DNA of 64,000 nt from the IMG/VR virus record IMGVR_UViG_3300028393_000022. One strand, given 5' to 3'. Shown piece after piece: positions 33,951 through 44,693 of this stretch. Source of the stretch: a virus. A program made the translations under genes and the position numbers. Below the pieces are notes generated by a model. It was given only the letters and a program-made list of their open reading frames with translations, did not search any database and was not told where the DNA came from. Every line of letters begins with the position of its first letter. The first letter of the stretch is position 1.

Positions 33951-34029
33951 TTTGTTTCCTTTAGTGTGTTGCGAAGTATGTATTATAACACCAAAAGAGC
34001 CTGTTGTCAAGCTCTTTCAGTCTTACTTA

Positions 34030-34377
34030 TCAGTCCATTCGGCTTCCAGCGTAGACCTTTTCCAAGCCCAGCTTGGCTTTGAGCACCTCTGCGTAGGCGT
34101 AGGCGCCTGCTTCCAGGATGCCCATGCTCTGCACACCTGCCTTGCTGGGATTCCACAGCTGGAGACTGCCGGTATAGTCCTTGCGGAAGCCAGCTGCCTG
34201 CAGGGCCTTGCCCAACTTTGAGTTGCTACGGACACCGTAGACGTTGACCCAAGCAAAGCCGCAAGCGTCACGATCGCCGTAGCGTTGAAGGGCTTCCTTA
34301 GCGGCTGTACGAGCAGCCATGGCGGCTTCGTTGCAGGCGTCTTGGACGGCTTCCAGGTTAAATGCTAGTGCTGTCAT
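34030..34377 (-). CDS. Early-region hypothetical protein
   Basis: Own promoter and SD; DACGFAWV motif. Confidence 0.75.
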   Translation of the reverse strand: MTALAFNLEAVQDACNEAAMAARTAAKEALQRYGDRDACGFAWVNVYGVRSNSKLGKALQAAGFRKDYTGSLQLWNPSKAGVQSMGILEAGAYAYAEVLKAKLGLEKVYAGSRMD

Positions 34378-34439
34378 TTCGGTTTCCTTTTTGTTTAACA
34401 TGTATGTATTATAACAAGGTTTTACCAGTTTGTCAACTG

Positions 34440-34649
34440 TTATTTGCTGGTGTGGTTTTTAAACAACAGGCCGCACAGCAGGCTAATTCCCCAGGCTGTA
34501 GTCCATTCGATAGTATGCACACCGTCTACTGCACCAACAAGGGCGCCGTTCCACAGCATGAACACGGGCCAGCTCATTACGAAGCTGATCAGGACAAAGC
34601 CGCCAACAACCACCACCGTGGCTCCAATGGCTGTAATGAACTTGTCCAT
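34440..34649 (-). CDS. Small membrane protein
   Basis: Hydrophobic; coupled to upstream ORF. Confidence 0.65.
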   Translation of the reverse strand: MDKFITAIGATVVVVGGFVLISFVMSWPVFMLWNGALVGAVDGVHTIEWTTAWGISLLCGLLFKNHTSK

Positions 34650-34783
34650 TACTTGCCTGCCTTGGCTTCTTGAGCGGCGATCTTGCCGCTGTATGCCTTG
34701 CCTGCGGTATGGATCAGTCCGGTCTTGGTGTAGGTAATAACGCCGCCGGTGCTGGATGCGATTGGTTTAGCTAGTGTAGTCAT
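34649..34783 (-). CDS. 44 aa early protein (not in ORF track)
   Basis: MTTLAKPIASSTGGVITYTKTGLIH...; SD AAGGA; promoter at 34810. Confidence 0.65.
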   Translation of the reverse strand: MTTLAKPIASSTGGVITYTKTGLIHTAGKAYSGKIAAQEAKAGK

Positions 34784-34850
34784 CTTGTTCCTTTGTTGTT
34801 TAAGTATGTATTATAACGTCTTTTCAAAGCCCTGTCAACCACTAGGGTCT

Positions 34851-35237
34851 TTAGAAAGGTGCTGATTGCCCGTACATGCGTCGAGTGCCCCGCACTCGTT
34901 CTGCTGTGGCCTTGAGGTTTTCCTTACGATGTACCAGCATATAGGCATCGTAGTCTACTGCATCAAAGCGGCAGAACTGGAAGTCTATGCCCTGTGCTTT
35001 GAGCACCTTGTTCACTTGGACCAGGGTGGCTTCTGCCACTGCAATACCTACCAAGATATCATCGTTGGTGACTTCTTCGGTTTCAGTCAAACCAGCCTGT
35101 TCCAAGATCAGTTCGATGTTGGCTGGATCATCCAACACCATGAACTTGTGCAGACGCTTGTTCAGTGCTGAGTTGCAGTAGTCCTCCAAATAATCGCCTA
35201 ATCGGTTGCTGTCGATGTCTTTGAGTGTTTTAGCCAT
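34851..35237 (-). CDS. Early-region hypothetical protein
   Basis: Own promoter; SD AAGGAG. Confidence 0.75.
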   Translation of the reverse strand: MAKTLKDIDSNRLGDYLEDYCNSALNKRLHKFMVLDDPANIELILEQAGLTETEEVTNDDILVGIAVAEATLVQVNKVLKAQGIDFQFCRFDAVDYDAYMLVHRKENLKATAERVRGTRRMYGQSAPF

Positions 35238-35301
35238 GTAGTGCTCCTTGTTGCGATATATGTATTATAACACCAAACTGATACCCTGTCAACCACTAGG
35301 G

Positions 35302-35475
35302 TTAATAGGTTTCTTTGACGATATCGAACTGATCGGCAGGGTATTGGGCCTTGAACTCCTCAGTCTTGACATATTCGTTGTAGCTCTTGGCTTCGAAGAA
35401 TACCTTCTTGAGAACACTCACATGCTTGCCTTTGGGCAGTACGGTTAGGTAGATGGATTTTGCTTTGCCTGCCAT
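35302..35475 (-). CDS. 57 aa early protein (not in ORF track)
   Basis: MAGKAKSIYLTV...FDIVKETY; SD AAGGA. Confidence 0.7.
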   Translation of the reverse strand: MAGKAKSIYLTVLPKGKHVSVLKKVFFEAKSYNEYVKTEEFKAQYPADQFDIVKETY

Positions 35476-35484
35476 GGTGTTTCC

Positions 35485-35691
35485 TTAGATGAATTTGCTG
35501 AGAACTTGTTCTGCTTCTTTGAACTGACGCATCCGTGCCACACGGTCGTCGATGGCGATCAGGTGTGCTTCTGCCATGAGTTCTTCTGCGTAGTTGCGGT
35601 CATCGTCTGATGCCTGCAGGAACCAATCCTCTAGTGCAGAGCTGCTCATGTTCATCAGGAACAAGAGGTTGTTCTTATCGTATTCGTTCAT
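35485..35691 (-). CDS. Early-region hypothetical protein
   Basis: ORF with SD GGAG. Confidence 0.7.
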   Translation of the reverse strand: MNEYDKNNLLFLMNMSSSALEDWFLQASDDDRNYAEELMAEAHLIAIDDRVARMRQFKEAEQVLSKFI

Positions 35692-35786
35692 TATTCAGCT
35701 CCAAAGTAAGGTGCGATGAGGATGGACAATCCCAGTGCCAACAAGGGCAATCCCAGGACCAATGCGAGGTTGATCAGTGCTGTCAT
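35691..35786 (-). CDS. 31 aa single-TM peptide (not in ORF track)
   Basis: MTALINLALVLGLPLLALGLSILIAPYFGAE; SD AAGGA. Confidence 0.55.
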   Translation of the reverse strand: MTALINLALVLGLPLLALGLSILIAPYFGAE

Positions 35787-35787
35787 A

Positions 35788-42693: not shown

Positions 42694-42773
42694 AGTGTGC
42701 TCCTTAGTGTGTATAGAACAATTATAACATGGTTTTACCAACCTGTCAACCAAAGACCCTTGCGGGCCCTGGG

Positions 42774-43046
42774 TTATACGACTTCCAGCATGTTAGCAGG
42801 CACTTTCCACAGACCACTTCCTGTGCGCACTGTGACGAATTTGATAGCGATCTTATCCACAGAACCCATATGGATCAATCCTGACTTTGACGATGTGAAC
42901 TTGACAGTTCCGCCTATGCGCAGGTTTCGCTTGTTCTGATCTGTAAGCCGTGCTCGGGCGAACTTGACTGCATCGATGATCGAAGTCAGTTGATCGTTAG
43001 TGAAGTTGCCTGCGAGGATCTCTGCGTTGACTGTTTGAATACTCAT
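42774..43046 (-). CDS. Early-region hypothetical protein (SH3-like C-terminus)
   Basis: Own promoter; GGTVKF...WKVPANML. Confidence 0.7.
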   Translation of the reverse strand: MSIQTVNAEILAGNFTNDQLTSIIDAVKFARARLTDQNKRNLRIGGTVKFTSSKSGLIHMGSVDKIAIKFVTVRTGSGLWKVPANMLEVV

Positions 43047-43102
43047 ATCAGCTCCTAGTTAGTGTAGAACAATTATAACATGGTTTTACCATGTTGTCAA
43101 CC

Positions 43103-43381
43103 TCACATTGACCAAAACAATTCACTTGATGGATCACATGCACGTGGTGTATCATGTGGGATCTCCACCATCTCCCCGCTCATCAGGTTGCGTACCCGCT
43201 TGATGGTGGGCACGAACTCGAACCTTGCAACAGGTCCTGAGTAGGCATCGAGTGCGATCTCTCGCATCTCTCGCTCCGAGCGCTGTGACGTATGGTCACG
43301 CCATACACTGGTATGAACCAGCCGCTCGCCTGACCGGCAACGGCGATCCTGCTTGTAGACGTACAGGGTGTATTGTTGCAT
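43103..43381 (-). CDS. Early-region hypothetical protein
   Basis: VRNLMSG...DTPRACDPSSELFWSM; own promoter. Confidence 0.7.
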   Translation of the reverse strand: MQQYTLYVYKQDRRCRSGERLVHTSVWRDHTSQRSEREMREIALDAYSGPVARFEFVPTIKRVRNLMSGEMVEIPHDTPRACDPSSELFWSM

Positions 43382-43458
43382 GGTTGTTCCTTTTTGTGTT
43401 TGTGTTTTGTTCATGTGTGTATTATAACACGAATTCAATGACCTTGTCAACCGATGGG

Positions 43459-43953
43459 TTATTTGCGGGCTTTGTTCAAACGAGGCAGATTGCCCGTTTG
43501 GCTAAAGATATAGTCCAGGTACCTCATCTCAAGATCTTTGTGGAAGCTGGTCATTGTGGAGTCTTCGCACCCAGCTACAGACACAGTCAACGACACCATT
43601 TCGCAACGCCGGGCCCACAGTGTGACACGACCTTCGCGCACTTCTCTCCGCAGTTCATCGCGAATGAACCAGTCAGTGGCATCTCCTGCACGATAGCGTC
43701 CAAAGCGTCCTTCAGTACCATACTTGGGCTGATTGCTGGTCTTCATGCGTACACCCAACGGATTGCCAGTCTCGCCCACTTTGACAATCTCGTCATCTAC
43801 TACAACGAAGTAGACCCAACTGCGGTGATCACTGAACATCATGGCCTCGTTGATGTTCTCGTAGAACCAACGGTTCTCAGTATCCCTAGCCACATCACAT
43901 ACCTTGACAAACCCGTCTGCGGTATAAGTGTTGATGTTCAGTGATGCATTCAT
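43459..43953 (-). CDS. GIY-YIG-like protein
   Basis: WVYFVVVDDEIVKVGET...DLEMRYL...PRLN. Confidence 0.55.
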   Translation of the reverse strand: MNASLNINTYTADGFVKVCDVARDTENRWFYENINEAMMFSDHRSWVYFVVVDDEIVKVGETGNPLGVRMKTSNQPKYGTEGRFGRYRAGDATDWFIRDELRREVREGRVTLWARRCEMVSLTVSVAGCEDSTMTSFHKDLEMRYLDYIFSQTGNLPRLNKARK

Positions 43954-44021
43954 AGTACGCTCCTTGTTAGTGTATGTGAGTATTATAACATGGTTTTACC
44001 AGTTTGTCAACCAAAGCCCGT

Positions 44022-44360
44022 TCAATCTCCACGGACATCAGTATTCAGAACAGGCTTAACCATTCTACGGATCTCAACCTCACGACGATGAGCAGCCGCC
44101 TTGCCACGGATCACCTCGTGTACGTAGACCTCTATCTCGCTCTTGTCGTTCAGCTTACGCAACTCAGCACACAGAAGCCAGTTCTTGTCTTCAGTCTTGG
44201 CACGGTAGAAGTGCTTGGCAGCTCGAGCCAATACACTCTTGTTCACAGTGCTTTCAGTCTTGGCTGTGACACCTATGTAGTTGAGCCCATTGACCACAAG
44301 CTCATAGATGATGTGGTTGCGGTCCGCTCTCTTTTTGCGTAGTGTGTTTGTCTGTGTCAT
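44022..44360 (-). CDS. GIY-YIG-like protein
   Basis: IIYELVVNGLNYIGVT...HRREVEI...PVLN; ATG 5 nt after TATAAT. Confidence 0.65.
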   Translation of the reverse strand: MTQTNTLRKKRADRNHIIYELVVNGLNYIGVTAKTESTVNKSVLARAAKHFYRAKTEDKNWLLCAELRKLNDKSEIEVYVHEVIRGKAAAHRREVEIRRMVKPVLNTDVRGD

Positions 44361-44410
44361 AGTGTATTATAACATGGTTTTACCAGTGTGTCAACCAAAG
44401 ACCCTACACT

Positions 44411-44575
44411 TTACTCGGTCTCTGCGTAGCCGTCCTCTTGCCACTCGCTATGCTGTCCTACTACGCCCACACTATCTACCTCTGTAGCGTAGGCAATAGC
44501 GTCTGCTGCCTCAGCGGACTCTGCCTCTATTTGCAAGCTATAAACAACTGTTTGTGTGTAGTAAAATGTCTTCAT
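44411..44575 (-). CDS. 54 aa early protein (not in ORF track)
   Basis: MKTFYYTQ...IEAESAEAA; SD AAGGAG; promoter at 44600. Confidence 0.65.
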   Translation of the reverse strand: MKTFYYTQTVVYSLQIEAESAEAADAIAYATEVDSVGVVGQHSEWQEDGYAETE

Positions 44576-44664
44576 CTAAGCTCCTTTTAGTGTAACTGTA
44601 TTATACAACACTTTTGCCACTTTGTCAATACCCCTACACACAGGCCGTGTATAAAAAGCCACAC

Positions 44665-44693
44665 TTGACGGCACTGCAAAACGGTGTTATAAT
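44665..44693 (+). promoter_or_regulatory. Divergent sigma70 promoter
   Basis: TTGACG-17 nt-TATAAT. Confidence 0.8.

Follow-up and report, generated by a model that had tools for sequence, protein, structure and literature searches.

Why should a phage carry, along 10.7 kb of its genome, 21 consensus promoters on a single strand, each followed by only one to four short genes? The question is raised by a 64,000-nt stretch of viral DNA (IMG/VR virus record IMGVR_UViG_3300028393_000022; the whole of this stretch is called the window below), in which these promoters and their genes form an array of small cassettes. We consider it likely that the early cassettes are shuffled as modules in the manner of the promoter-early stem-loop (PeSL) elements of T4-type phages, here in a jumbo phage lineage resembling PA5oct, with the junction of promoter and leader supplying the homology for exchange.

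An array of exact consensus promoters

A consensus scan of the 32-47 kb region found 21 TTGACA-N17/18-TATAAT sites, all on the minus strand between 33982 and 44628 and all matching at 12/12 positions; the chance expectation for exact sites is about 0.001 (10.7 kb × 2/4^12). The spacer is 17 nt long in 20/21 promoters and 18 nt in the remaining one (−35 starting at 43450), and the density is one promoter per ~510 bp. The likeness goes beyond the hexamers: GG directly precedes the −35 in 17/21, the TG of an extended −10 is found in 15/21, and 10 promoters carry GGTAAAACC at a fixed register within the spacer. The initial annotation, which had described about 21 leftward, near-perfect promoters sharing more than their hexamers, is borne out on both points, and each of the four repeated blocks that it quoted (36408 and 39208; 37197 and 37450; 41431 and 41669; 35281 and 36062) occurs exactly twice. 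It had also remarked that upstream genes end inside the next −35, as g16 and g09 do (TGA stops at 39588 and 41729 respectively, both within the following TTGACA). Its range of one to three short genes per promoter was too narrow: short genes do stand behind each promoter, and reading the minus strand gives 35 open reading frames (ORFs) of 31-290 aa, from one to four per promoter.

Nearly every array ORF has a strong Shine-Dalgarno (SD) site behind a CA-rich, G-poor leader. The exception is g02, the ATG of which follows the −10 hexamer by 5-6 nt with no SD site, so that its mRNA is probably leaderless, judging from this spacing; the arrangement TATAAT-6 nt-ATG is kept in about 13/18 g02 homologues (relatives L083, L013, L027, L091, L163 and others), and three others have an ordinary leader with an SD site. 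In composition, too, the array is an island (33000-44600), with a GC content of 0.50 and a third-codon-position GC content (GC3) of 0.58 in its genes as against 0.39 and 0.31 in 17 long genes elsewhere in the window, and relatives show the same step (~0.47-0.50 versus 0.37-0.41). A possible reason is adaptation of the early genes to the codon usage of the host; another is separate circulation of this arm of the genome.

An exact-pattern search of the whole 64 kb returned the same 21 sites and one more, on the plus strand at 536-564. This lone TTGACA-N17-TATAAT lies between two plus-strand ORFs near the tail-sheath module.

One way to account for so dense an array is that it acts mainly as a sink, titrating host sigma70 RNA polymerase away from host promoters, with the ORFs secondary. 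Exact −35 and −10 hexamers, a mostly extended −10 and the close spacing of the promoters all suit such a role, and consensus sigma70 promoters of this kind predict very tight polymerase binding. The ORFs, on the other hand, are conserved as proteins across relatives (40-100% aa identity) and have SD sites, which argues that they encode expressed products and are not filler. A bacterium moreover holds thousands of polymerase molecules, of which 21 sites on one genome would bind a negligible share. Sequestration by a single infecting genome is therefore quantitatively unlikely, and we regard a sink as a very improbable main function of the array.

A widespread clade with the same array

Genes for a 975-aa tail sheath, for helicases, for a DnaB-like helicase and for a T4-type large terminase are present in the window. 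The last of these shares 56% identity with its counterpart in the Pseudomonas jumbo phage PA5oct and 44-51% with those of other jumbo phages. At the nucleotide level the array had no megablast match in 50,697 phage records. The last gene in the order, g35, is the conserved anchor of the array and has more than 590 relatives in IMG/VR; two of the relative contigs that bear it are 322 and 332 kb long (100% and 93% complete). Given the terminase match, the spread of g35 and the size of these two contigs, the phage is a member of a widespread uncultured clade of jumbo myoviruses distantly related to PA5oct. When metagenomes were scanned with g18, nothing close to identical to the window came up; the best match had 92% aa identity and lay on a 2.5-kb contig.

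The one-sided orientation of the promoters is a property of the clade. When the best 80 IMG/VR loci were oriented on g35 there were 520 exact promoters on the array strand and three on the other, and in 167 related loci the figures were 1017 and 26, where ~0.1 would be expected per strand. The promoters are also clustered, as in a 151-kb relative in which 16/19 exact sites fall within one 12.4-kb stretch. In L073/L076 (positions 1-20864) there are 35 promoters with at most one mismatch in 20.8 kb, on both sides of the g35 homologue, so that arrays can be far larger than the one in the window. The logo of 400 unique clade promoters, ggTTGACA-N17-(tg.)TATAATAca.acaTa.aca, has as its longest common stretch the −10 together with the first transcribed bases. 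Promoters with GGTAAAACC in the spacer are a subfamily (10/20 in the window, 64/400 in the clade). Two further relatives, otherwise 99.9% identical, differ by one unit of a tandem repeat with a 20-bp period (L025, 11449-11570; L026, 11449-11590).

Evidence for exchange at promoter junctions

Recent events were read from alignments chained between close, non-identical pairs of relatives (at least 85% identity; 138 loci), and a promoter window was defined as extending from −15 of the −35 to +40 after the −10, which covers 16.2% of the arrays. End points of alignments between the window under study and its relatives were left out as evidence, since the promoters are alike and ends pile up there by construction. 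Inside arrays, the close pairs yielded 42 unique indel or replacement events. Their boundaries lie within promoter windows in 92/168 cases (55%; binomial 3e-30 against the coverage), and promoters stand at both sides in 21/42 events, at one side in 13 and at neither in eight.

The form of the junctions is more telling than their number. In six pairs (L005/L006, L054/L051, L021/L040, L021/L031, L124/L126 and L094/L098) the shorter allele has a single chimeric promoter, which combines the upstream context and spacer of the left promoter with the leader of the right one. The switch falls in the −10 and the first transcribed bases, over 6-19 bp of common sequence, and what the longer allele has in between amounts to one or two small ORFs. 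The commonest starting point of right-hand homology blocks is the −10 hexamer (17/48); left-hand blocks run on into the leader and stop there. In at least seven independent indels (#2, 4, 5, 6, 10, 13 and 15) the flanking alignments overlap by 19-52 bp of promoter in the short allele.

As all of the relatives are metagenome assemblies, and repeats can mislead assemblers, the differences between contigs might be thought to be chimeras made at the repeated promoters. Contigs from six samples are, however, 100% identical across the array (L007-L012), as are L015-L018, and the common stretches (12-45 bp) are shorter than sequencing reads. We find this explanation scarcely credible.

The same signature is found for two of the window's own cassettes. 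Gene content is mosaic across 62 non-redundant loci, with g12, g32, g05 and g26 changing place among them and with g01, g03 and g22 having no homologue in any. Relative L020 illustrates the mosaic, with aa identities of 100% for g11 and 98% for both g12 and g27 but 82% for g35 and 56% for g18; the g11-g12 block is 95% identical to L020 at the nucleotide level. In L084 the surroundings of g03 are unrelated; the gene is flanked there by two promoters with 42 bp of perfect identity, and the stretch homologous to the window extends from the −10 of P3 as far as the −35 of P4. A promoter duplication of this kind is what recombination of a circle, bearing g03 and a single promoter, into a resident promoter would leave behind, though as a trace of circles it is indirect. 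In the window g17 is flanked by P11 and P12, a pair of promoters with an identical stretch of 31 bp. Metagenome contig L089 has no g17 and passes straight from g16 to g18 through one chimeric promoter, made up of the upstream context of window P11 and the leader of P12. P11 and P12 are themselves 86% alike in their upstream halves and 47% alike in the leader, and for P14 and P15 the reverse holds. Over all window promoters the identities of the upstream and downstream halves correlate at only 0.19, which indicates that promoter halves reassort inside the window.

Several results nevertheless weigh against a special role of the promoter in exchange. About 60% of gene junctions carry a promoter, so that boundaries placed at gene junctions would give ~36% of events flanked by promoters on both sides; the observed 50% is only a modest enrichment over this null. 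Eight events have no promoter at either boundary, and in five intra-operon indels the crossover falls at the SD/ATG, where the microhomology is 3-17 bp long. In a test of adjacency conservation at deep divergence (52% for promoter junctions, 45-68% for operonic ones) neighbours were parted about as often at the one kind of junction as at the other; the test, which was also affected by a distance-threshold artefact at g20-g21, carries little information. The events among related loci are not all independent. No relative close to identity with the window was found, and only two events (g17 and g03) involve the window's own cassettes.

In a rival account the promoters are expression signals only, illegitimate recombination occurs anywhere and selection keeps those products that have whole, expressible genes. 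Intra-operon indels 9 and 17, with just 3-6 bp of microhomology at the ATG, speak for it; many boundaries would land at promoters in any case, given their frequency at gene junctions; and the adjacency test gave no clear excess of breaks at promoter junctions. The SD/ATG indels as a group are as compatible with illegitimate recombination and selection as with homology-driven exchange. The account does not explain the perfect 42-bp promoter repeat around g03 in L084 or the 31-bp identity of P11 and P12 around g17, nor the independent indels that leave an overlap of promoter sequence in the short allele, and the crossovers cluster at the −10 instead of being spread through intergenic space. For these reasons we think it unlikely.

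The initial annotation had proposed that the promoter doubles as the exchange site, and this is in part upheld, by the chimeric promoters, the 42-bp repeats around g03 and the extra g17, and in part weakened, by the modest excess over the gene-junction null and by crossovers that also fall at the SD/ATG. The mapping of breakpoints in aligned relatives, which it had suggested as a check, likewise gave a mixed answer: boundaries are concentrated in promoter windows, with no excess of broken promoter junctions at deep divergence. The likeness to PeSL elements that it had pointed out does hold, as the element-bounded indels and chimeric promoters match the PeSL model.

A proposed model for cassette turnover

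The array sites can be read as host-type early promoters, because they have the exact sigma70 consensus and because PA5oct is reported to depend on host RNA polymerase (32 TTGAC/TATAATA promoters were placed in that phage with the help of RNA-seq; Lood et al., 2020, PMC7318152). Modular shuffling would then work as follows. Host sigma70 RNA polymerase is predicted to start at the 21 promoters, most of them with an extended −10, and each cassette, comprising an unstructured CA-rich leader, a strong SD site and one to four genes, would be expressed on its own right after DNA entry. The standardised junction would double as a short recombination homology, above all in the 12-40 bp from the −10 through the first transcribed bases, and crossovers between two junctions would delete, insert or swap whole cassettes, both within a phage and between related phages. 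The best reading of the data is that the whole junction (promoter, leader, SD and ATG) supplies homology, with the −10/leader as the main site, and that the promoter is not a unique, dedicated one.

Hairpins and the spacer family

The stem-loop that gives PeSL elements part of their name is less regular here. Clear upstream hairpins are present at about 8-10/21 promoters, and the 55 nt upstream are barely more stable than shuffled sequences (mean fold energy −13.1 versus −11.5). Hairpins within the spacer are a more distinctive feature: among 691 unique clade promoters 16% of spacers fold at −6 kcal/mol or below, against 5% of controls in which only the middle 14 spacer bases were shuffled (P = 3e-9), and the excess persists without the GGTAAAACC family. 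In the hairpin spacers base pairing joins the −35 (through its ACA) to the extended −10 (through its TGT); the arms between them vary, and the loop is A-rich. At the g35 promoter (33982-34030 region) a terminator-like hairpin (core stem of 5 bp followed by a T run; −18 kcal/mol for the 47-nt fold) has the −35 in its loop, so that the g34 terminator and the g35 promoter share bases. The array has no excess of canonical intrinsic terminators (10, where 11.5 would be expected). The spacer hairpins could serve as a weak terminator, as a processing site for read-through RNA or as an operator.

A half-palindromic spacer, TGGTAAAACCA, is found at a fixed register in 10/21 window promoters. Promoters with this spacer make up 21% in loci that bear g21, the winged helix-turn-helix gene, and 3% in loci that lack it, a difference that is confounded by relatedness. 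The spacer might form a second regulatory layer, either as a terminator or processing hairpin for the upstream cassette or as an operator through which g21 shuts off the early array, a suggestion that we make with considerable doubt. If it were true, the spacer layer and the GC3-rich codon island together would make the array a self-regulating early module tuned to host translation.

Hairpins and a repeated site at the borders of cassettes also call to mind an integron-like, site-specific system, with a dedicated recombinase that recognises the promoter or the hairpin. Many spacers do form hairpins, and the repeated site does bound the cassettes. However, a scan of the array ORFs and of ten ORFs beside the array turned up no integrase or recombinase family, the spacer sequences are not conserved across the clade, and the crossover points vary from the −35 to the ATG, following local identity as in homology-driven exchange. 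Such a system is most improbable.

Cassettes and their products

The cassettes are listed in Table 1. The tRNA gene that lies among them has its own 11/12 promoter within the early array and so is probably expressed with the early genes. At the upstream edge of the array another 11/12 promoter (TTGACG-N17-TATAAT, with TG; 44665-44693, plus strand), placed back-to-back with that of cassette 1, points towards two AT-rich ORFs of 86 and 105 aa (44719-45289, plus strand).

Table 1. Cassettes and other units of the array, all on the minus strand; the higher number of each promoter range is the start of the −35.
Unit	Span	Promoter	Genes (length) and remarks
1	44411..44628	44600-44628	g01 (54 aa), 44411-44575
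2	44022..44394	44366-44394	g02 (112 aa), stand-alone GIY-YIG domain
3	43459..44010	43982-44010	g03 (164 aa), T4 endonuclease II (DenA)-like GIY-YIG fold
4	43103..43450	43421-43450, 18-nt spacer	g04 (92 aa)
5	42774..43100	43072-43100, 8-bp spacer hairpin	g05 (90 aa)
6	41729..42749	42721-42749, behind GC hairpin	g06 (59 aa), g07 (48 aa), g08 (126 aa; phrog_5644), g09 (82 aa; membrane-like)
7	41471..41732	41704-41732	g10 (66 aa)
8	40391..41490	41462-41490	g11 (88 aa), g12 (70 aa), g13 (189 aa; 40391-40960; DUF1281/Api92-like)
9	40066..40346	40318-40346, upstream hairpin	g14 (73 aa), acidic
10	39588..40054	40026-40054, spacer hairpin	g15 (61 aa), g16 (76 aa)
11	39270..39591	39563-39591	g17 (88 aa; phrog_24766)
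12	38542..39266	39238-39266	g18 (156 aa; phrog_1987), g19 (63 aa)
13	37613..38528	38500-38528, 7-bp spacer hairpin	g20 (135 aa), g21 (89 aa; 37613-37882; winged helix-turn-helix, PF14090)
Inside 13	37923-37951	37923-37951, weak (9/12)	between g20 and g21
14	37257..37500	37472-37500	g22 (62 aa)
15	36600..37247	37219-37247, leader identical to 14	g23 (73 aa), g24 (61 aa), g25 (70 aa)
tRNA unit	36498..36608	36580-36608, 11/12 (TTGACC-N17-TATAAT)	tRNA-Arg(TCT), 36498-36572; between 15 and 16
16	36086..36466	36438-36466, leader common with 12	g26 (105 aa)
17	35302..36073	36045-36073	g27 (76 aa), g28 (31 aa), g29 (68 aa), g30 (57 aa)
18	34851..35292	35264-35292, upstream half common with 17	g31 (128 aa)
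19	34440..34838	34810-34838	g32 (44 aa), g33 (69 aa; membrane-like)
20	34030..34436	34408-34436	g34 (115 aa; phrog_22149)
21	33078..34010	33982-34010	g35 (290 aa), AAA ATPase, phrog_1250

Most array ORFs remained without a function after searches of Pfam, PHROGs, PDB sequences and the ESM Atlas. The homologue of g35 in the T4-like phage Acj9 is annotated nrdC.10. The assignment of g13 is the sole addition from the Atlas, where its structure has template-modelling (TM) scores of 0.85-0.98 to viral clusters, some of them fused to a WYL_2 domain; g13 is present or absent beside g12 in different relatives and has no promoter of its own.

The AlphaFold model of g03, built from 26 homologues, has a mean confidence score (pLDDT) of 93.7 and matches T4 endonuclease II (EndoII; 2wsh) with TM scores of 0.57-0.75 and a Foldseek probability of 1.0 at 17-18% sequence identity. 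It also matches the GIY-YIG restriction enzyme Hpy188I (E values for 2wsh and 3oqg, 6e-7 to 8e-6). The invariant columns of the family include Y48, G60, E61, R83, R86, E142 and N160; the match of the Tyr, Arg, Glu and Asn residues to the GIY-YIG catalytic set is a visual assignment. Since T4 EndoII acts early and initiates the degradation of host DNA, the modelled fold of g03 would suit a host-takeover nuclease with host DNA as its substrate. For g02 the fold matches, to I-TevI and UvrC domains, are weak (TM 0.44-0.63, E > 0.1), and its family conserves the pattern IIY...YIG...R...E...N, with Y19, Y28-I29-G30, R46, E94 and N106 invariant. The Pfam search matched neither g02 nor g03. The initial annotation had seen the array as a bank of host-takeover or anti-defence genes; g03 alone, through its modelled fold, suggests host takeover, the searches gave no sign for or against anti-defence, and nearly all the other ORFs have no family match.

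Comparison with known systems

Small early genes behind clustered, strong, host-type promoters that point in one direction of transcription are also features of the host-takeover and early modules of T5 and T4. T4 denA is itself an early gene, and g03 shares with its product both the GIY-YIG-type fold and the predicted early placement, whereas the sequences are far apart. Of cultured phages PA5oct is the closest relative found, with a g35 homologue of 48% aa identity in addition to the terminase match, but it has only four small genes, in one operon, upstream of that homologue. It was rejected as a cultured model of the array, having eight exact sites scattered over 287 kb and no array.

The closest parallel is with the PeSL cassettes of the T4-type phages RB49/phi1, PST/T4 and nt-1/KVP40 (Arbiol et al., 2010, PMC2839356; Comeau et al., 2014, PMC4122927). 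As there, a near-perfect sigma70 early promoter, an SD site and a start codon precede small ORFans in a hyperplastic region, indels and replacements are bounded by the element, which persists at the junction in chimeric form, and the interval from the −10 to the SD/ATG holds the crossovers, as it does those of the PeSL mini-circles sequenced by Arbiol et al. (PMC2839356). There are also differences. The lineage is PA5oct-like and jumbo (~320-330 kb) and not T4-like, all 21 promoters have the exact consensus, and the cassettes form a GC-rich island. The definition of PeSL includes a stem-loop just upstream of the promoter (PMC4122927), whereas here a separate upstream stem-loop is found at about half of the promoters and the hairpin is often inside the 17-nt spacer or spans the −35, so that the geometry differs from that of published PeSLs in a partial but real way.

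The new features are the lineage, promoters that are both exact and dense, hairpins placed in the spacer and a GC-rich composition; the shuffling mechanism has already been described in T4-like phages, and the finding extends a little-studied mechanism and overturns nothing. The many close natural variants are a ready data set for measuring cassette turnover, and the array offers very strong, compact promoter/leader units of the sigma70 type together with some 35 uncharacterised early proteins. PeSL-mediated shuffling had been documented in three pairs of T4-like phages, and the same signature is now seen in a widespread uncultured jumbo clade, a sign that large virulent phages may in general rely on standardised expression junctions for the turnover of early accessory genes.

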